Part shown: in pieces, positions 41,372 to 49,736 of the stretch
Numbering within the stretch: position 1 is the stretch's first letter
Layout: the number at the start of each line of letters is the position of its first letter
NCBI GenBank assembly: GCA_963726255.1
Contig: CAVSBL010000002.1
Span: 544,001 to 608,000 of the forward strand
Origin: Candidatus Bathyarchaeota archaeon
Lineage (GTDB): Archaea; Thermoproteota; Bathyarchaeia; 40CM-2-53-6
Length of the DNA stretch: 64,000 bases
Direction of reading: 5' to 3'
Program-made: the position numbers and the translations under genes
Notes under the pieces: model-generated
The model's database searches: none
What the model was told of the DNA's origin: nothing
The model's input: the letters and a program-made list of their open reading frames with translations, nothing else

Positions 41372-43651
41372 CTAGGCCCAGTAGGTGACTGGCCACTCAG
41401 CATGGTTCGCCTGGCCGGAATCTCTCAACGCGGCTAAATCATATCCGAAGGGTAGTAGAAGGTTGACAGTTGAGGAAAGAAGCAGATCGACATACCTCTC
41501 TGAGTCGAAGACGGATCCTTCATCCATCAGCTCGGTGGGGAGAGCTCGGTTATGGTTTATTCTGGACTTGTCGTAGGTTAAGATGTAGTTGATTGTTTGC
41601 CCGGCGTGTACCTCCATGCCTTCCGCGGCGAGGTGCTTAGCCGCGATGGCTTGCGGAACCAGGTTTCTGTATTCGTTGGGATTCTTGCTGAGGTGTTTCT
41701 CGATCACGAGCTCTGCGACCGGAATGTTTCCGGTTCTGATTAGGTCAACGTATGACTTAACGACCGCCAGCACTTCGGGTATGAGCGCCATGAATTCCTC
41801 TGAATTGTTCGCCTTCGAGAGTGTGGTTAGCACATCCGTTTGACACCGCCTGACTATGCCGGCAGTGTCATGGCGGCGGAGGTCGATTCCTCTAACTTTG
41901 AGCTTGCCGTCCTGGAAGACTCCGTAGTACCGGTTGAGGACGGGGATTCGCGGGTCCGTTCGCGAGTTCAGGAACACAATCCACTTGTAGCGCCCCTCGA
42001 ACGCTATCGGGAAGTGCAGCTGCTCCTCTATCGTGCGGCATAGCTCCTCGTACTCATCTGGTGTTGCGTTAGGTTTCCAGAGCCACATCGAATCCACGAT
42101 GCCGTGTATGAGTTTGAAGCAATTGGATTCTGCAATCGCGACCGCTTCTCGCAGGATCTTCCGGGAGTAGGCACAGGTTGCGATGTGTGCGTCGATTCTC
42201 CCAAACCGCGCGTTCTTGAAGCCTAGGTATCCAATTGCCCGCCGCGTTCGAGGCGGCTATGAGCAGACTAGGATCCATTTGAGCGCGGCTTGGCGTTGAT
42301 CGTACCGCAACCTTGTAGGTGGGTCCATGGCTTCTTTTTTGTACTTCTTGTAAAGCGCACGTTTTCGGAGTAATATATCGAGCGACCTGGGTACTATGCC
42401 ATTCCATCTTTCACAAACATTCCACCCAAGCTCCGGTACTCGACTAACGGAGTCTGGGCAGCAGTTGCAGCGTATGGTTTCTCCGCTCAGGTTCATGTTG
42501 CGCATTATAGTTGGGTATAGGGAGGAGAAGTCGAGTTCGGCGACGGAGTCGTGTAGGCCGAATTTTGGTTCGTAAATGAAGCCACCGCGGTCCGCTAGTA
42601 TGAGTTCGTTTCCGTTCTTCCACTCCTCGGGCTCGTTCTTGTTCCAGGGGATTAATACGTCGGCTTTGACGGCGTGGTAGAGTTGGAGGGACGTCATGCT
42701 GGTGCCAATCGTCGTTCGCGAGGCCCTCTGCAATGGGATTATGCAGGTTCGGGCCACCTCGAAGAGACCTTCGAGGCCGCAGTCGCTGCTGATGAATCCA
42801 TTCGCCTCGTCCACATGCAACCGGCCCAGTAGTCTTGCGGCGGTTTGCTTGAAGAGTATCTTCCCGTACGAAAAGTAACTGTGGCCTTGCACTTCGTAAA
42901 CCCGAAGCGGCGAATCTTCCCTACCGAGAACCATTTTGTGGAGGATGTGGTGGTGTTGAGCACGCCTGGCCAAGTAGGGGAAAATGAAGGAGTCTCCGCC
43001 TTCCGTCAAGACTACATCCGGGTCAATCTCGCGGAAGGCTGTGACGAGTTTGTTGAGCTTGTCAAGTTCGCTGCCCGAGTCGAAAATTATGGTATCATTC
43101 TTGGTTTGGATTTTGATTAAGTCTAATTCATCTTCAAACCTTGAGATCCTGCAAGTCTTCTTAGTGCTGATTTCTAGCCGTATGTTTCGAAGTGTTGGCA
43201 GTTCGTAGTCGATTGTTTCACGGGAATCCTTGATGGTCCACTTAACGCGGCCATGAGATGCGTCAGCCTCGACGAACGCTAGGGGGAATAGGTCGTTGTG
43301 GTAGAGGTACATCTGAATTGATGGGATATCTACGTCGTAGAGCCTGAACTTCGAGTATCCACCATGCCGGAGGATCTTCCGTGCCAGAGTTTGGGCTTCT
43401 GATTCGTCGTTTACTTCAACTTCGAGAACGTTACTCTTAGTCTGGTCGCCTGCCCTCTCGAATTTCTCGACGAATGTGCATGATGGAATGAATGGTTGGA
43501 GGTTTAGGAGGTCGTCACGTTCTCCGCCAATGTGGATTCGCGGCTTCCAGCCGTCAACTAGCTTGACGCATGATCCGTCGCGCTGCTTGAGCCAGACAAC
43601 CATTTGGCTGGCTTTAGGGTAGAGATCCAAGATCCAGCCTTGATGTTTCAA
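41372..43651 (-). CDS. polB2: Family B DNA polymerase PolB2 (Dpo2-type), interrupted by a 24-nt putative intron; 751 aa if spliced
   Basis: DRGG..EP, DFSSLYPTIM, KWILVCS|FGYLG, HGIVDS (variant motif C), NRYYG, KVRG. Confidence 0.92.
42235..42258 (-). other. Putative BHB mRNA intron in polB2 (AGCCGCCTCGAACGCGGCGGGCAA)
   Basis: 4-bp helix GCTC/GGGC, bulges ATA and AAT, intron stem GCCGC/GCGGC; excision gives TCA TTT GGA (S-F-G) and removes a TAG. Confidence 0.85.
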
Positions 43652-43902
43652 AGGCCCCGCTCTTCGATTCGCTTCTCTAACTCGATGATTTTCTTGTGGT
43701 GCGCGAACAACATCGAAATAATCAGGGGCACCTGTTTTATTGGTGAGGCCATTACACTCGCCGCCGACGCTAGCAACTTACACTGATTCAACATATCTTC
43801 GAAAATGATTTTGTCTTCTTGCCTGAGAAATTCCTGAAACCTTTTCAATTTTTCAACCTCGGCCTCTACGACCATTCTCCATGACGGGATTGTTCGTCCC
43901 AT
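43648..43902 (-). CDS. Small PolB2-associated protein
   Basis: MGRTIPSWR...LR.ED..IF; translationally coupled between RadA-like gene and polB2. Confidence 0.8.
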   Translation of the reverse strand: MGRTIPSWRMVVEAEVEKLKRFQEFLRQEDKIIFEDMLNQCKLLASAASVMASPIKQVPLIISMLFAHHKKIIELEKRIEERGL

Positions 43903-44651
43903 CACAGGTAACTCTCCAAAGTCTCTACCCCAAGCGAGGATGCTGTGGCGGTGCGTGGGGGAAGCCACGGATGTTTCAGTAGTGAAACTCGGGTCAGGCC
44001 GCCTTTTTCCTCGATTGTTGCGAAGACATGTACAGCCTGTGTAAGGATGCGATCCATTAGCGCGTTTCTTGATTCTATGTTCGTCGCAATTATCAGACAT
44101 TTTTGTTGTCGAGCGAGGCTTGCGAGATTTCTCGCGGCTTTCGCGAAAATGCGAAGTGCATCCTCTTTATCCTCGCCCCGTATATCCGGGTCGCAGTAGA
44201 GTTGCGTAATGTCGGAGACGACAACGAGTTTCGCCTTGAATTTCTTTATCGCAAGTTGGAGTTTGTCGGTTATGAGGCATGCGAGTTGGTGGTGGGTGAA
44301 AGCCCTACTGACATGCAGCCGTTCTAACACTGTCTCCGTGTCAAGGCCATGCTCAACTGAACGGTCTGAGATATAGTAAGGGTCGAAGAGGTTGCCGCCG
44401 TCAACGAATACCGTATCGCAGTCCGGACCCAATGGTTGCGGAAGTGTCGCCCTGACGCAGAGTAGCATAGAAAGGGCGTGTGCAGGTTTACCCTGAAACG
44501 TAGCAAACTGGCCGAAGTTGAGCCTCAAGATGCCGTCTAAGGCTTCCATGCCAGAGGTCAGATCAGGTTGCAACTGTTGACGCTTGCTTAGCAGAAGGTC
44601 GTTAACTTTGACGAAATTTTCGACAGCTACTTCACAATTCAATGGAGCCAT
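43902..44651 (-). CDS. Inactive RadA/RecA-like protein of the PolB2 cassette (start uncertain)
   Basis: TSG..ALD, FVDGGN.FDPY, VSRAFT.HQL; Walker A absent. Confidence 0.8.
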   Translation of the reverse strand: MAPLNCEVAVENFVKVNDLLLSKRQQLQPDLTSGMEALDGILRLNFGQFATFQGKPAHALSMLLCVRATLPQPLGPDCDTVFVDGGNLFDPYYISDRSVEHGLDTETVLERLHVSRAFTHHQLACLITDKLQLAIKKFKAKLVVVSDITQLYCDPDIRGEDKEDALRIFAKAARNLASLARQQKCLIIATNIESRNALMDRILTQAVHVFATIEEKGGLTRVSLLKHPWLPPRTATASSLGVETLESYL

Positions 44652-44793
44652 AGAATTGCCGTGAAGAATGCAAGCAGATAATCTGGGAGACCAGATTATG
44701 CGCATCTCTGTCAGAGACACGTGAATGTAAAGCGTTCTGCATTTTGAGGCGTTCACTGAGGCTGGAAGTTGTTACGGAGTAAGGTGGTTCAAC

Positions 44794-45768
44794 CTACCGT
44801 CTTGCGAGTCGCTTATTGACTAACTTGCGGCCGGCAGAGTAAGGGTCGATTTTGTTCGCCGCTACCTGTTTCATGATTTTCCGGAATGTTTCTGACGATG
44901 CCATTTCCTTCAGCGATATGTCCTCAAAGTATTGCTGGGCTGCATCGAGCACTTCGGATCGCAACCAATTCTCATCTGCCCTGCGTGATCCAACTGATTC
45001 TTTTACGTACTTTGAGTGTTGGTTTATTGCTTCTATAAGCCCCGTAACTCCTTCTCCCGACCTTGCAATAGTCTTCAAGACGCGGGGTCGCCAACCGGTA
45101 ACCGGTTCGGCCATCATGACCATTTGGTGAATTTGCTGGGCCGCTCGTTCCGCATTTTCCATATCGGCCTTATTGACGACGAAGATGTCACCGATTTCCA
45201 TAATGCCCGCTTTTAATGCTTGAATCTCATCGCCTAACCCGGGTGCGGTTACGACGATTGTGGTATGGGCGAGTTCTTTTACGTCGACATCGGATTGGCC
45301 CGCTCCAGCTGTTTCAACGATAACGTAGTCCATTGCGGTTGCGTCTAAGATTCGAACCGCGTCTTCTGTTGCCCTGGCGATTCCGCCGAAATGGCCGCGA
45401 GTAGCCATGCTTCTAATGAACACTCGAGGATCTGCTGCTAGGTTTCCCATCCTAATTCGATCTCCCAGCAAGGCACCACCTGTTATCTGACTTGATGGGT
45501 CAACGGCTACGATTCCAACTCTGCTGCCAGCATCTCTGTATCGCTCTGCAAGTTGTGCGATGAGCGTGCTCTTTCCGCAGCCTGGGGGGCCCGTTATGCC
45601 GATAACCTGAGCCTTGCCCGCACGCCAATACAGGCTAGAAAGAATCACAATTCTTGAACGGGGATCATTCTCGGCTGTTGACATTAGCTGGGATATGGCA
45701 CGCCGGTCGCCGTGTACAGCTTTTTGAATTAGTCTTTCAACGGGTGATTTCGTATGCGGCTTGGGCAC
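44794..45768 (-). CDS. meaB: MeaB/ArgK GTPase, B12-mutase chaperone
   Basis: GPPGCGKS, DPSS..TGGALLGDRIRM, RSMATRG, ETAG.GQS, NKAD. Confidence 0.95.
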   Translation of the reverse strand: MPKPHTKSPVERLIQKAVHGDRRAISQLMSTAENDPRSRIVILSSLYWRAGKAQVIGITGPPGCGKSTLIAQLAERYRDAGSRVGIVAVDPSSQITGGALLGDRIRMGNLAADPRVFIRSMATRGHFGGIARATEDAVRILDATAMDYVIVETAGAGQSDVDVKELAHTTIVVTAPGLGDEIQALKAGIMEIGDIFVVNKADMENAERAAQQIHQMVMMAEPVTGWRPRVLKTIARSGEGVTGLIEAINQHSKYVKESVGSRRADENWLRSEVLDAAQQYFEDISLKEMASSETFRKIMKQVAANKIDPYSAGRKLVNKRLARR

Positions 45769-45792
45769 GAATGTGAGCGCCTCGTCATTTTC

Positions 45793-47381
45793 CTAGATGA
45801 TCGTCTTGGGATGGAACTCTCCATACTCTTCTCTTATGACATCGCTTATTTCGCCAGTAGTAGCCTTAGACCTCACGGCGTCGAATATCAAAGGTATTAC
45901 GTTGATGTTCCGCTCAAGAGCATTCTGAAGCTTTCTGAGGCTACGAAGCAGCTGAGTTTTCCGACGGTTTCGTCTGAAAGCTTCTGTGCGGGAAATCTGC
46001 CGACGTACTACCAGGGGGAGATCTTATGAATCTTGATTTGATACGGTTTCGGGTCAACATATACGTTGACCCCAACAATTTTGATTGCGCCAGATTCTAT
46101 TCCAATTTGCCTCTTGAAAGCGCTATCGCGAATCTGCTTTTGAATATACCCACTCTGAATCGCTTTAACAGATCCTCCCAGTTTTTCAACTCGACCTATT
46201 TCAGCCCGGGCCTCATTTTCCATCTGGCTCGTGAGGTATTCGAGGTAGTAGCTTCCGCCCAAGGCGTCAACTGTCTTCGTAACACCACTTTCGTGGGCAA
46301 TTATCTGCTGCGTTCGAAGGGCTATTTTCACGGCTTCTTCTGTAGGCAGGGATAACGCTTCGTCAAGGGAATTTGTGTGCAGCGACTGTGTTCCCCCTAA
46401 GACTGCCGCCAGAGCTTGGATGGCTACTCGGACGATGTTATTCTGCGGTTGCTGGGCAGTGAGCGTTTCTCCGCTGGTTTGCGTGTGGAAGCGTAATTTC
46501 ATCGCCTCCGGGTCATTTGCGTGAAATTCCTCTTTCATCATGTGTGCCCATATGCGGCGGGCTGCCCGGAATTTGGCTACTTCTTCTAGGAAATCGTTGT
46601 GGCATGCAAAAAAGAAGGACAGATGCGGCGCGAACTCGTCGATCTTCAACCCGCGTTGGATGCAAGCTCTCACGTACTCCTTTGCGTTCGCAAATGCGTA
46701 AGCGAGTTCTTGGACCGCGCTTGAGCCGCTTTCTCTGATGTGATATCCGCTTATGCTGATCGGGTGCCACATCGGCATTCTCTTGGCGCAAAATTCGATA
46801 ATGTCCACGGACAGCCTCAACGATTGCTCGGGAGGAAAGATGTAGGTATTGCGCGCTATGTACTCCTTGAGGATGTCATTCTGTGTCGTTCCACGCAGTC
46901 GTCCAAGCGGGACTCCCTGCGATGTTCCGACCGATGCGTACATTGCTAACATTATGGCAGCCGTGGCGTTGATGGTCATCGAAGTACTGATCCTTCCAAG
47001 GTCGATTCCCTGGAAGAGTAGTCTCATGTCATTCACAGAACTGATCGGTACTCCTACCCGACCGACTTCTCCTTCAGCCCGAGGGCTGTCGGAATCATAG
47101 CCCAATTGAGTTGGAAGGTCAAAGGCAACGCTAAGCCCCGTTTGTCCTTGTTTAATCAGGAATCTGAAACGCCGATTCGTAGCCTCGGCGCTGCCAAACC
47201 CGGAATATTGCCTCATCGTCCAAAGTCGGGAACGGTACATCTCGGAGTAGATTCCGCGCGTAAAGGGGAATTTCCCCGGTTCGCCCAAATTGCGTTCGAG
47301 GTACCGTGGGTCAGAATCCCTTTGGTCGTAGAACTTTTTCACTGCAAAGCCCGAAGCAGAGAAGATCCTTTCTTCTTTCAA
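45793..47381 (-). CDS. mcmA: Methylmalonyl-CoA mutase large subunit; 1-nt frameshift at 46014-46018
   Basis: TMRQYSGF (Tyr), QNDILKEYIARNTY (Arg), SGYHIRE; shifted frame continues to ATTGEISD..YGEF. Confidence 0.9.
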
Positions 47382-47500
47382 AGTTGGACGAACCTCCTAG
47401 TGGACCTAGCACGTATATGACTTTGAAGGGAAAAGCCCTCAAATCACCCAAAAGAACATTAACGCCCATCTTCTGAAGTTTCTAAGTTCGTGTGGAACAA

Positions 47501-49261
47501 ATGCCGCCGAAGAGAAAAATGAATTACTGGGCGAAGAAAGTTGAGCAAATAGTAGCCGCGAGAAAACGACAAGGCCCACTTTACGATCGCAAGCAGCTTC
47601 GTTCGATAGTTGAAAAACAGCGCAAATGGAAAGAAGGCACGCTAAAGAAATGGTTGGCGAAGGCGCCCGAGCGCAAGGAAGAATTCGAGAACCCGTCCGG
47701 AATCCCCCTAAGACGGATATACAGTCCTACGGACGTGTCGTACCAAGCTTATTCCGAGAACGTTGGACTCCCGGGCGAATTTCCATACACCCGCGGGGTC
47801 CACCCAACCATGTACCGGGGCCGGCTATGGACTATGCGAATGTTCTCCGGTTACGGTACTCCCGAGCAAACCAACGCACGACTCAAGTACCTTCTGAAGG
47901 AAGGCGAGACTGGACTGAGCATTGCTTTCGACATGCCGACTTTGTATGGCGTTGACGCAGACCATCCAAGGGCTGAGGGAGAGGTTGGCAAGTGCGGTGT
48001 TTCGGTATCCTCACTTAGAGACATGGAAGTGGTCCTCGATGGCATTCCGCTCGATGAAGTCAGCACTTCAATGACGATCAACGCGCCTGCTTCTGTTCTA
48101 ACCTGTATGTATGTTGCAGCCGCTGATGAACGCGGGATAGCGCCGAAGAAACTGCGCGGCACGGTGCAAACCGACATTCTCAAGGAGTATGCAGCCCAAA
48201 AGGAGTGGGTGTACCCACCCGAAGCTCACCTCAGAATCATCCGCGACATGATTCTGTACTCCACAAAGCACCTCCCACAATGGAACTACGTCAGCGTAAG
48301 CGGATACCATATTCGCGAAGCGGGTTCAAGTGCCCTACAGGAATTGGCTTTCACTTTGGCCGATGGGTTTGCCTACGTTGACCTAGGACTGCAAGCTGGG
48401 TTGAAAGTAGACGATTTCGTCCCCAGGCTATCCTTTTTCTTTAACTGTGGTATGGACTTCTTTGAAGAGATTGCGAAATTTCGGGCTGCCCGACGGGTTT
48501 GGTCTAAAGTTCTCAAAGAAAAATATAATGCGAGAAACCCCAGGTCAACGTTAATGCGGTTTCACACTCAGACCTCAGGCGTGTCTTTGACATGGCAACA
48601 ACCACTCAACAACATTGTAAGAACTACTATTGAGGCCTTAGCCGCAGTTTTGGGCGGAACACAATCATTGCACACGAATGCGTACGATGAGGCATGGGCT
48701 CTACCTACAGAGCAAGCCGCTCTAATTGCCCTGAGAAGCCAACAACTCTTGGCTGAAGAGACCGGGGTTGCTGACGTCATTGACCCCCTCGGTGGATCAT
48801 ACTATGTTGAATGGCTAACGGATGAAATGGAGCAGCGAACATACGAGTATCTTGCAAAAATCGAGGGCCTCGGCGGTATTCTGGCTGCCATCAAGACAGG
48901 TTTCATTCAGAGGGAAATCGCAGATACTTCATACAAGTATCAAAGGCAGATGGAAGAAGGCAAAAGGGTTATTGTGGGAGTTAACGCCCACCAAATGAAT
49001 GAAGCATCTCCTATTGAAACGCTAAGAATCGACGAAAAGATACGCAACAGCCAAGTCGAGAGGTTGAAAGAAGTCAAGAAAAACAGGGATGCTACAGCAG
49101 TGAAAAACTCTTTAGAAGAACTCCGCTTATCTTTCCTGGATCCTGATTCGAACTGCATCTACCCGATGCTTAAGGCCGTAAAATCCTATGCAACATTAGG
49201 AGAAATTGTGGACGTTGGAAGAAGGGTGTTCGGGGACTGGAAGGAGCCCTCGATACTGTGA
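47501..49261 (+). CDS. B12-dependent acyl-CoA mutase large subunit, isobutyryl-CoA-mutase-like
   Basis: TMRMFSG (Phe), QTDILKEYAAQKEW (Gln), SGYHIRE. Confidence 0.85.
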   Translation: MPPKRKMNYWAKKVEQIVAARKRQGPLYDRKQLRSIVEKQRKWKEGTLKKWLAKAPERKEEFENPSGIPLRRIYSPTDVSYQAYSENVGLPGEFPYTRGVHPTMYRGRLWTMRMFSGYGTPEQTNARLKYLLKEGETGLSIAFDMPTLYGVDADHPRAEGEVGKCGVSVSSLRDMEVVLDGIPLDEVSTSMTINAPASVLTCMYVAAADERGIAPKKLRGTVQTDILKEYAAQKEWVYPPEAHLRIIRDMILYSTKHLPQWNYVSVSGYHIREAGSSALQELAFTLADGFAYVDLGLQAGLKVDDFVPRLSFFFNCGMDFFEEIAKFRAARRVWSKVLKEKYNARNPRSTLMRFHTQTSGVSLTWQQPLNNIVRTTIEALAAVLGGTQSLHTNAYDEAWALPTEQAALIALRSQQLLAEETGVADVIDPLGGSYYVEWLTDEMEQRTYEYLAKIEGLGGILAAIKTGFIQREIADTSYKYQRQMEEGKRVIVGVNAHQMNEASPIETLRIDEKIRNSQVERLKEVKKNRDATAVKNSLEELRLSFLDPDSNCIYPMLKAVKSYATLGEIVDVGRRVFGDWKEPSIL

Positions 49262-49293
49262 AGTTTGGAGGTGGGACAATCTCGACAACACGG

Positions 49294-49736
49294 TTGACGA
49301 CCAAGAAAATTCAGCAGAGAAAGATTAGGGTGCTTGTGGCAAAGCCCGGGCTCGTGTGAATCAACGGCTAAACGGGCATGACCGTGGCGCCCTCGTCTTG
49401 TGTAGGGCCCTCCGAGATGCTGGTATGGAGGTCATCTACGCCGGACTCTTAGCCGGCCCAGAGCAAGTTGCTCAAATGGCCATAGACGAAGACGTTGACG
49501 TTGTTGCGATGAGCTTGCTCAACGGCGCACACATGACCGCCTTCCCGAAGGTCGCAAAGGCACTCAAGGAACATCAGGCAGGCGACATCCTGCTTGTAGG
49601 GGGCGGCATTATCCCTGAAGAGGATAAACCGAAACTCGAGAGATTGGGTATAACGGGGAATTTCGGCCCAGGCACCTCTCTGCAGACGATCATCAATCAC
49701 ATAGTAGGACGCGTTCGGAAGGAACGTTGGAAGTAG
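49294..49736 (+). CDS. Cobalamin-binding small subunit of acyl-CoA mutase, interrupted by a 17-nt putative intron; 141 aa if spliced (start uncertain)
   Basis: KIRVLVAKPGL|DGHDRGA..LRDAGMEVIY.G..SLL.GAH..GGGIIP. Confidence 0.92.
49355..49371 (+). other. Putative BHB mRNA intron (TGTGAATCAACGGCTAA)
   Basis: Exon stem GCCCG/CGGGC, helix GGCT/GGCT, bulges CGT and AAA; excision gives CTC GAC GGG CAT (L-D-G-H). Confidence 0.88.

Follow-up and report, generated by a model that had tools for sequence, protein, structure and literature searches.

Candidate bulge-helix-bulge introns in motif codons of protein genes from a Bathyarchaeia genome

How can two protein genes yield functional products when each is broken, inside a family motif, by a short stop-bearing insert? 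The question is raised by a 64,000-nucleotide stretch of DNA (the window; positions 544001-608000 of contig C2) from G000, a Bathyarchaeia metagenome-assembled genome (MAG) of 2.42 Mb in 5 contigs. One of the two genes encodes a family-B DNA polymerase (polB), the other the small B12-binding subunit of a mutase of the methylmalonyl-CoA-mutase type. A preliminary description of the window had placed inserts of 17-24 nucleotides (nt) in these genes; they measure 24 and 17 nt, and the end coordinates given there are exact. Comparison with related genomes argues that both are very likely bulge-helix-bulge (BHB) introns in pre-mRNA, removed by the tRNA-splicing endonuclease EndA and the ligase RtcB.

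The polB insert interrupts motif B. Read through, the frame passes from ...KWILVCS to TAG, then through seven codons (PPRTRRA) into IGYLGFKNARFG. Exon 1 ends ...GCTCAT and exon 2 begins TTGGATAC; excision produces TCA TTT GGA, that is S-F-G, and a predicted junction-spanning peptide ...WILVCSFGYLGFK. Insert-free orthologues read TCA/TCG/GCA TTC/TTT GGN at this junction, with nothing between. The mutase insert splits the Asp codon of the DxHxxG motif. Here the frame opens at a TTG (position 49294), reads ...VAKPGL, is broken after ...CCCGGGCTCG and resumes two bases out at ACGGGCATGAC (GHDRG). Removal of the insert gives L-D-G-H-D-R-G, the DxHxxG motif, with a predicted junction ...GGCTCG^ACGGGC (carets mark junctions throughout) and a predicted junction-spanning peptide ...PGLDGHDR.

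The two inserts share one anatomy and no sequence. Four nucleotides of exon 1, ending 2 nt before the 5' junction, pair with four nucleotides of the insert that end 2 nt before the 3' junction. Bulges of 3 nt flank this 4-bp helix, each junction falls after the second bulge nucleotide, and a hairpin within the insert abuts the central helix. In polB the helix is GCUC (exonic)/GGGC (intronic) and the bulges are AU^A and AA^U; the mutase helix, GGCU/GGCU, contains two G.U pairs. The preliminary description had claimed a 5' stop, a 4-bp helix, two 3-nt bulges and a common structure without common sequence, and all of this is confirmed in both inserts. Its further claim, that a cut after the second bulge nucleotide restores the motif, also holds, the restored S-F-G and L-D-G-H matching insert-free orthologues.

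Inserts recur at the same sites in relatives, sampled as Candidatus Bathyarchaeia/Bathyarchaeota MAGs from different projects. Twenty polB orthologues were collected, 18 with matches to both exons (L015 and L018, with exon 2 unmatched, were dropped). The insert is present at 11 of the 18 loci, with lengths of 20, 21, 23, 24 and 26 nt, and absent from 7; a pattern search recovered it in 13/59 genomes of the family. The mutase insert occupies 13 of 21 loci (16, 17, 18 and 23 nt) and is absent at 8. An early in-frame stop is common to all carriers, spanning the 5' junction as T^AG in 11/11 polB inserts and forming the second codon of the insert in 13/13 mutase carriers. In the mutase carrier L034 the base preceding AC is T, which fixes the 3' cut of the insert. 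The insert-free mutase loci have GAC or GAT as the Asp codon in seven cases and AAC in the eighth, L039 (G024:C103:1-1734, at a contig end). L039 reads CTT AAC GGG CAC, with Asn replacing the DxHxxG Asp of all others, and could represent imprecise intron loss or a divergent copy. At the dropped polB locus L015 (G023:C17:18120-22517) the open frame is 1283 aa long, against 750-800 elsewhere, with no exon-2 match near the junction; it may hold an intein or another large insertion at or near motif B.

Pairing is kept while sequence changes, in the comparison across relatives that the preliminary description had proposed. Among polB carriers the exonic helix strand is fixed by codons, the intronic strand varies as G(A/G)GC with pairing intact, and the inner stem changes on both sides (for example GCCGC/GCGGC vs GCCGU/ACGGC). 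The mutase intronic strand appears as GGCU, GGCC, AGCC or AGCU, with pairing maintained. All four central pairs form in 10/10 distinct polB, 13/13 mutase and 26/26 aEF-2 sequences (a third gene, described below), which corresponds to 40/40, 52/52 and 104/104 paired cells; these full scores are partly built in, because the 5' boundaries were chosen by demanding 4/4 central pairs, and the same boundaries are independently demanded by the reading frame and the protein alignment. In the inner stem, 30/30 (polB), 34/39 (mutase) and 75/78 (aEF-2) cells are paired. When central helix and inner stem are pooled, polB scores 70/70 against 20-24/70 in slid controls, the mutase 86/91 against 18-31/91, and aEF-2 179/182 against 32-110/182.

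De novo folding of MAFFT orthologue alignments by RNAalifold recovers the central helix, the 5' 3-nt bulge and the inner stem in aEF-2, polB and the mutase; 6 of 11 aEF-2 pairs show two-sided compensatory change. In the definition of PMC7714728, a BHB motif is also closed beside its bulges by two helices, h (exon-exon) and h' (intronic), each at least 2 bp long. The intronic helix h' has 4-6 bp in polB, 2-3 bp in the mutase (5 bp in L034) and 1-13 contiguous bp in aEF-2, where the loci with h' = 1 (L196, L199 and L200) have a single mismatch followed by 6 bp. For the exon-exon helix h, 61/65 cells are paired in the mutase, 33/50 in polB and 82/130 in aEF-2. RNAalifold finds the second 3-nt bulge with its adjacent outer helix, and hence the full hBHBh', in the mutase only; the 3' side of polB becomes a larger internal loop, and a fifth pair, U-A, is added. 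The polB and aEF-2 inserts are relaxed BHB motifs, in which exon pairing is displaced or partial. Folds of 90-100 nt around the two window inserts have z-scores of -3.7 and -2.4 vs shuffles, and shorter pieces are unexceptional. Longer exon-exon helices bracket both inserts in single-sequence folds (42200-42300, minus strand, and 49320-49410), as an 11-bp helix, CCAAGCCGCGC/GCGCGGUUUGG, in polB and an extended stem in the mutase. RNAalifold retains 3 bp and 8 bp of these bracketing helices, with one compensatory pair in polB.

Two more protein genes of G000 carry inserts of this kind. In cbf5, split at profile position about 70-73, 19 nt lie between G and AT of the catalytic Asp codon in GTLDP (helix CCCU/GGGG; predicted junction after excision ...CCCTAG^ATCCCAAGG). 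At the identical point, G039, a distant genome from the window's order, carries 18 nt whose sequence is unrelated. A pattern admitting any 10-40 nt at the Asp codon matched 80/301 class genomes, with 0 matches for reversed-pattern controls; this signature split occurs in 35/86 genomes of the window's order, in 44/214 outside it and in G000 itself. In relatives, the open frame upstream of cbf5 exon 2 ends within 9 codons in 28/39.

The aEF-2 insert, 29 nt long and 39.8 kb before the window, was discovered by comparing BHB-compatible junction peptides between G000 and its congener G017. The insert is flanked by IR(N) and MGIIAHVDHGKTT; its helix is UCCG/CGGA, the bulges are AA^U and AG^A, and the inner stem measures 8 bp. 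The predicted junction is ...TCCGAA^ATATGGG, and the junction-spanning peptide begins NMGIIAHVDHGK. The G017 insert has 27 nt and a different stem. Inserts of 25-44 nt are present at 27/30 loci. Two genomes, G037 and G026, read uninterrupted ...IRN-IGIIAH, and the G001 locus lies inside a long open reading frame (ORF), its insert being recovered by the pattern search. That search found the insert in 47/301 class genomes, 46/86 of the order and 0/214 outside, with reversed-pattern controls again at 0. All 27 inserts contain an in-frame stop, in 24 as TAG or TAA at insert positions 6-8, and exon 2 matches TIGR00490 from profile position 22 onward (839.9 bits). aEF-2 is indispensable; therefore the cells must remove or bypass the insert.

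All four inserts fall after a first codon letter (T^TT, G^AC, A^AT, G^AT), two of them split an Asp codon, and the four sites lie inside or next to catalytic or ligand-binding motifs. This shared phase and position may be a matter of ascertainment, as there are four cases and two were discovered via a broken motif. At G001:C20:32618-34958 the aEF-2 insert is followed by a 1320-aa open frame that matches aEF-2 only from residue 11, and G023:C11:1511-1960 has a comparable aEF-2 open frame of 1200 aa. These frames resemble what an intein within or beside the P-loop would give, a few codons away from the intron; if so, two kinds of intervening element would sit in one motif.

The preliminary description had presumed an EndA and an RtcB, and G000 encodes both. 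The two EndA paralogues, 187-188 aa long, each have N- and C-terminal domains (PF01974, 80.9 and 53.3 bits). The first, scoring 90.9 bits, passes the TIGR00324 cut-off, and its nearest solved chains are 3p1z_B, 3ajv_B, 2cv8_A and 2zyz_B, which we take to be crenarchaeal EndA entries. The second falls below that cut-off and matches beta-subunit models weakly. The EndA catalytic triad is Tyr/His/Lys, and by eye the second paralogue has Arg in place of the His. The two paralogues, one catalytic and the other divergent, probably form a heteromeric enzyme. Such a two-paralogue set resembles the hetero-oligomeric crenarchaeal enzyme, which earlier work reportedly tied to cbf5 splicing. RtcB is matched by PF01139 at 571.4 bits.

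From the anatomy, the conservation and covariation, the purifying selection, the precise loss and the enzyme genes we infer cleavage, ligation and their timing as follows. In the transcript, four exon-1 nucleotides upstream of the 5' junction would pair with four near the 3' end of the insert; the insert hairpin would close one side of this helix, and exon-exon pairing would more or less close the other. Two 3-nt bulges, 4 bp apart, would thereby be presented to the tRNA-splicing endonuclease. EndA would cut each bulge after its second nucleotide and RtcB would ligate the exons, which would restore a Phe codon in polymerase motif B and the Asp codon in the DxHxxG motif of the mutase. The same mechanism would act in at least two further genes, in cbf5 on the catalytic Asp codon and in aEF-2 just before the GTP-binding P-loop. 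In a transcript left unspliced, translation would run into an in-frame stop one to three codons past the 5' junction.

Several observations weigh against BHB splicing, in addition to the built-in part of the helix scores. In polB the exon-side helix beside the second bulge is weak (the 33/50 cells given above), and RNAalifold places a 10-bp outer helix several nucleotides away; in the mutase the inner stem has just 2-3 bp. Relatives that carry inserts are non-independent samples. Scans for BHB plus open frames across the whole of G000 stay at chance level, with 23464 seen vs 24565 expected and 1132 vs 1143; structure alone proves nothing. The G000 assembly is rich in small frameshifts, so broken frames are common. 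Finally, a contig from an RNA library extends over the mutase insert and retains it (X20 record 21, 49233-49461, 229 nt, 0 gaps). One RNA (metatranscriptome) run among 21 listed was aligned, together with three DNA runs. In the contigs of these four runs there are no 17- or 24-nt joints, the RNA run being without cover at the polB insert, and contigs cannot show the absence of a minor spliced form. The same RNA library contains a 4.1-kb contig across genes of both strands, and it may hold DNA or precursor. The RNA-run contigs neither confirm nor exclude splicing.

Could each gene instead give two polypeptides, the second from an internal start, with the insert serving as a regulatory hairpin or terminator or being the scar of a mobile element? 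A GTG within the mutase insert opens a 126-aa ORF, and in the genus of the window an ATG stands at the head of aEF-2 exon 2. A product started in the mutase insert would, however, lose the Asp of DxHxxG, and polB exon 2 does not open with a start codon. In 10/27 carrier loci (L209-L211, L213-L215, L217, L218, L220 and L222) aEF-2 exon 2 starts with ATT, ATC or ATA (Ile), so that there is no independent start there in those ten, and insert-free genes run through ...IRN-IGIIAH. No Rfam family matches at the polB or the mutase insert. We regard separate polypeptides as very unlikely.

Retention of the inserts in the mRNA and their skipping by the ribosome, as in programmed translational bypassing, would leave the genes equally intact. 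Bypass elements of this type, in T4 gene 60 and in yeast mitochondria, are likewise short, hairpin-forming, stop-bearing inserts in intact genes. The stop at the 5' edge followed by a hairpin is like the take-off signals of bypassing, and the sole RNA-library contig over the mutase insert keeps the insert. Bypassing requires matching take-off and landing codons, however, and by eye there are none, as neither polB TCA nor mutase CTC has a partner at the insert end. The restored codons are built from both sides of the insert, which whole-codon hopping cannot achieve. Unlike in bypass elements, the conserved pairing between exon 1 and the insert 3' end frames two 3-nt bulges at both junctions, which is endonuclease geometry. 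The bypassing explanation is highly improbable.

Nor is it at all probable that the inserts mark decaying or dead genes whose hairpin shape is incidental. Each insert does bring a stop or a frameshift, many other frames in the assembly are broken, and a neighbouring mutase large-subunit paralogue (46008-47381) is frameshifted. That frameshift, however, is a 1-nt difference at a run of C, where three other DNA runs carry one more base. Insert lengths are mostly not multiples of three, yet both exons are open in every carrier (11 and 13 species), and exon lengths are kept: 120 codons for mutase exon 2 and 273-299 for polB exon 2. The ratio of nonsynonymous to synonymous substitution rates (dN/dS) is 0.06-0.14 in polB exon 1, 0.195 in polB exon 2 and 0.03-0.04 in mutase exon 2, with dS saturated and dN modest in the more distant pairs; for the mutase, 'exon 1' taken from stop to stop contains some non-coding DNA, and the ratios obtained there, 0.1-0.5, are unusable. 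These values point to purifying selection on the polB and mutase exons, and the relaxation that the preliminary description had allowed for in pseudogenes is not seen (dN/dS 0.03-0.2). Moreover, pairing is kept while insert lengths change, and an insert of this kind interrupts aEF-2, an essential gene, in 46/86 genomes of the order. Three changes are needed to explain the insert distribution on a 20-row tree of polB exon 1, and starred branches force at least two of them. The insert-free G017 and G019 are nested in a 100/100 polB clade whose other five members carry the insert, which indicates exact loss. The dead-gene explanation is largely refuted.

An artefact of long-read assembly or sequencing is refuted as well: the assembly does hold numerous 1-nt frameshifts, one of which (46012) is contradicted by other DNA runs, but the inserts are structured, 16-44 nt long, found in independent MAGs from different projects (11 polB and 13 mutase loci) and, as to the DNA-read support on which the preliminary description had made its idea depend, spanned with 0 gaps by DNA contigs of runs X2 and X4 from two other studies.

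The preliminary description inferred that this lineage may carry many mRNA introns, and the count of 'many' is not supported. Its proposed genome-wide search for BHB motifs at split ORFs yielded no excess over chance; the aEF-2 insert came from comparison between genomes. The strict BHB rule is satisfied by 3.15e-4 of all (site, length) pairs in G000, and a codon-usage filter was too weak at 20 codons and failed on polB exon 1. Comparative screens covered 776 kb + 420 kb = 1.196 Mb of G017 (41% of about 2.9 Mb) and the whole 1.44 Mb of G039. They yielded the mutase, aEF-2 and polB inserts (G017) and the cbf5 insert (G039), and no others. When ORFs of G017 and G039 were compared with G000 by tblastn, and the reverse, polB was the only stop-carrying insert; this screen is blind to shared introns and to very short first exons, and neither aEF-2 nor cbf5 was recovered by it. 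The remaining broken frames are mostly 1-nt frameshifts, as is typical of errors in assembly. The four inserts are a floor from a partial census.

Both long-read MAGs, G000 and G017, show a background of 15-21 small frameshift-like breaks per comparison. Breaks of 1 or 2 nt occur in conserved genes, for example at C2:553201, 536430, 945838, 647833 and 558432, with many 'extra -1' pairs. Broken ORFs in the G000 assembly are mostly errors, which is relevant to any pseudogene count. Among the candidates rejected were C2:546375 (a continuous ORF with a hairpin), C2:731636, C2:2172165-2172223, an L7Ae/S28e pair and several 100-150-nt 'introns' (adjacent genes), and C2:1299290, 1808719, 2361899 and 1336417 (1-nt frameshifts). 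Inspection of C2:1127748 in G000 found no BHB, and none of three inspected sites in G017 has a BHB insert, 320424 reading as a 1-2-nt frameshift.

It is conceivable, if rather unlikely, that this order of Bathyarchaeia accumulates EndA/RtcB micro-introns specifically in catalytic-motif codons, with the output of a polymerase, a B12 enzyme and an essential translation factor dependent on the capacity for tRNA splicing and open to being throttled by it. On such a view the introns would have built up over time, class-wide for cbf5, order-wide for aEF-2 and family- or genus-wide for polB and the mutase, each behind a first codon letter and each with its conserved early stop in frame. If it were true, the order would be a prokaryotic parallel to IRE1/XBP1-type control and would show in living cells how protein genes come to tolerate obligatory mRNA splicing. 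The preliminary idea of a system of many introns, and of splicing as a regulatory switch, is speculation.

To our knowledge, the textbook archaeal BHB introns in protein-coding genes have, since 2002, been those of one gene, cbf5. The BHB intron in crenarchaeal cbf5 pre-mRNA was reportedly described by Watanabe in 2002 and Yoshinari in 2006. Like the inserts reported here, it is a short BHB insert in a protein gene, gained and lost among relatives and associated with a hetero-oligomeric EndA, and G000 cbf5 carries an insert at the identical site. According to a 2009 survey by Yokobori, the crenarchaeal site is the catalytic Asp codon seen here, the intron is absent from Thermoproteales, Cenarchaeum, Nitrosopumilus and Korarchaeum, and the Bathyarchaeia lineage was not included (PMC2738675). 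In contrast to the crenarchaeal case, where splicing was shown experimentally, the introns proposed here are known from sequence; they belong to Bathyarchaeia, and among their hosts are aEF-2, a family-B polymerase and a B12-binding mutase subunit.

A second archaeal mRNA case is the 46-nt BHB intron in the 5' untranslated region of Haloferax volcanii HVO_1309, verified by circular-RNA sequencing and in vitro cleavage; that report names cbf5 as the only other mRNA case as of 2020 (PMC7714728). HVO_1309 likewise has the splicing endonuclease acting on an mRNA in addition to tRNA and rRNA, but its intron lies in an untranslated leader and leaves the reading frame uninterrupted. Archaeal tRNA and rRNA BHB introns share the 4-bp helix, the two 3-nt bulges and the cut after the second bulge nucleotide, and very short introns occur among them. 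Here, in contrast, the substrate would be an mRNA, the exonic helix halves are codons under protein constraint, and the conserved early in-frame stop has no equivalent among tRNA introns. In the eukaryotic XBP1/HAC1 system, a coding micro-intron (26 nt in XBP1) is excised by IRE1 and the exons are sealed by tRNA ligase. The likeness lies in the coding micro-intron, the protein endonuclease and the tRNA ligase, with removal altering translation; the difference is that IRE1 recognises paired stem-loops, not BHB, and acts as a stress-regulated switch. A search of the open literature (subscription journals lying outside it) found no reports of Bathyarchaeia mRNA introns, or of introns in aEF-2, polB or mutase genes.

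On the comparative evidence, this lineage very probably splices several messenger RNAs; the mechanism is an ordinary one, the scope is notable. Should the inserts be spliced, automatic annotation wrongly calls such genes truncated or pseudogenic: some 20 residues go missing from the start of aEF-2, and polB and the mutase subunit look split. Such miscalls would touch many MAGs of an abundant soil and sediment lineage. Archaeal mRNA splicing would then be more than a one-gene curiosity and would reach an essential translation factor across an order, and the nested distribution with its precise losses would be a natural data set on how introns come and go in prokaryotic protein genes. The recurrent motif-codon position and the conserved early stop would suggest how introns persist, as a testable hypothesis.

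Table 1. Coordinates of the inserts, their exons and the endonuclease genes (window positions unless a contig is named).
Feature	Position	Strand	Remarks
polB exon 1	42259..43651	-	ends ...KWILVCS + first Phe-codon letter; ORF as listed, start putative; profile basis PF03104, PF00136 positions 41-159, NF004418 positions 11-435 of 717
polB BHB insert (putative mRNA intron)	42235..42258	-	inner hairpin GCCGC/GCGGC; GGGC pairs with exonic GCUC; junction TAG
polB exon 2	41372..42234	-	last two Phe-codon letters, then GYLGFKNARFG...; profile basis PF00136 positions 282-450, NF004418 positions 484-703 of 717
polB exonic 5' strand GCUC of central 4-bp helix	42261..42264	-	40/40 cells paired, 10 distinct sequences
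mutase exon 1	49294..49354	+	TTG start, 20 codons + G of Asp codon; small B12-binding subunit, methylmalonyl-CoA-mutase type
mutase BHB insert (putative mRNA intron)	49355..49371	+	Asp codon G^AC split; in-frame TGA as second codon
mutase exon 2	49372..49736	+	..AC GGG CAT GAC.., D-G-H-D-R-G onward; PF02310 positions 11-115 of 121; TIGR00640 positions 13-130 of 132
complete mutase hBHBh'	49344..49377	+	outer helix GCCCG/CGGGC; central GGCU/GGCU; bulges CG^U, AA^A
aEF-2 insert	C2:504176-504204	-	
polB insert site	42258/42259		
mutase insert site	49354/49355		
aEF-2 insert site	C2:504204/504205		
cbf5 insert site	C2:296551/296552		
EndA paralogue	C2:748246-748812		
EndA paralogue	C2:1451462-1452025		

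Across 41.4-49.7 kb the window encodes the family-B DNA polymerase (minus strand), a RadA-like protein, MeaB and mutase subunits, the latter comprising two divergently oriented methylmalonyl-CoA-mutase large-subunit genes and the small B12-binding subunit gene; G000 as a whole has three family-B polymerase profile matches. In the large-subunit paralogue at 46008-47381 (minus strand) the reading frame shifts where five C stand in a row (G on the plus strand), 46008-46015; with one base added, the C-terminus reads without a break and can be aligned to the paralogue at 47492-49261. At 46012 an additional G is present in the DNA contigs of runs X1, X2 and X4, and at 46013 the RNA-library contig carries an additional C. 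The frame change is likely a 1-nt indel of the assembly or strain, and this break was rejected as a third intron, being a 1-nt difference at the C run. A sub-threshold Rfam match to the glycine riboswitch (43801-43929, minus strand; 24 bits vs a gathering score of 32, E = 0.3) falls in the overlap of two minus-strand ORFs and is probably due to chance. No tRNA genes were found inside the window. On contig C2, ARAGORN in intron mode predicted introns in 31/35 tRNA genes, several implausibly long at >500 nt, and these predictions suggest an intron-rich tRNA set in G000.

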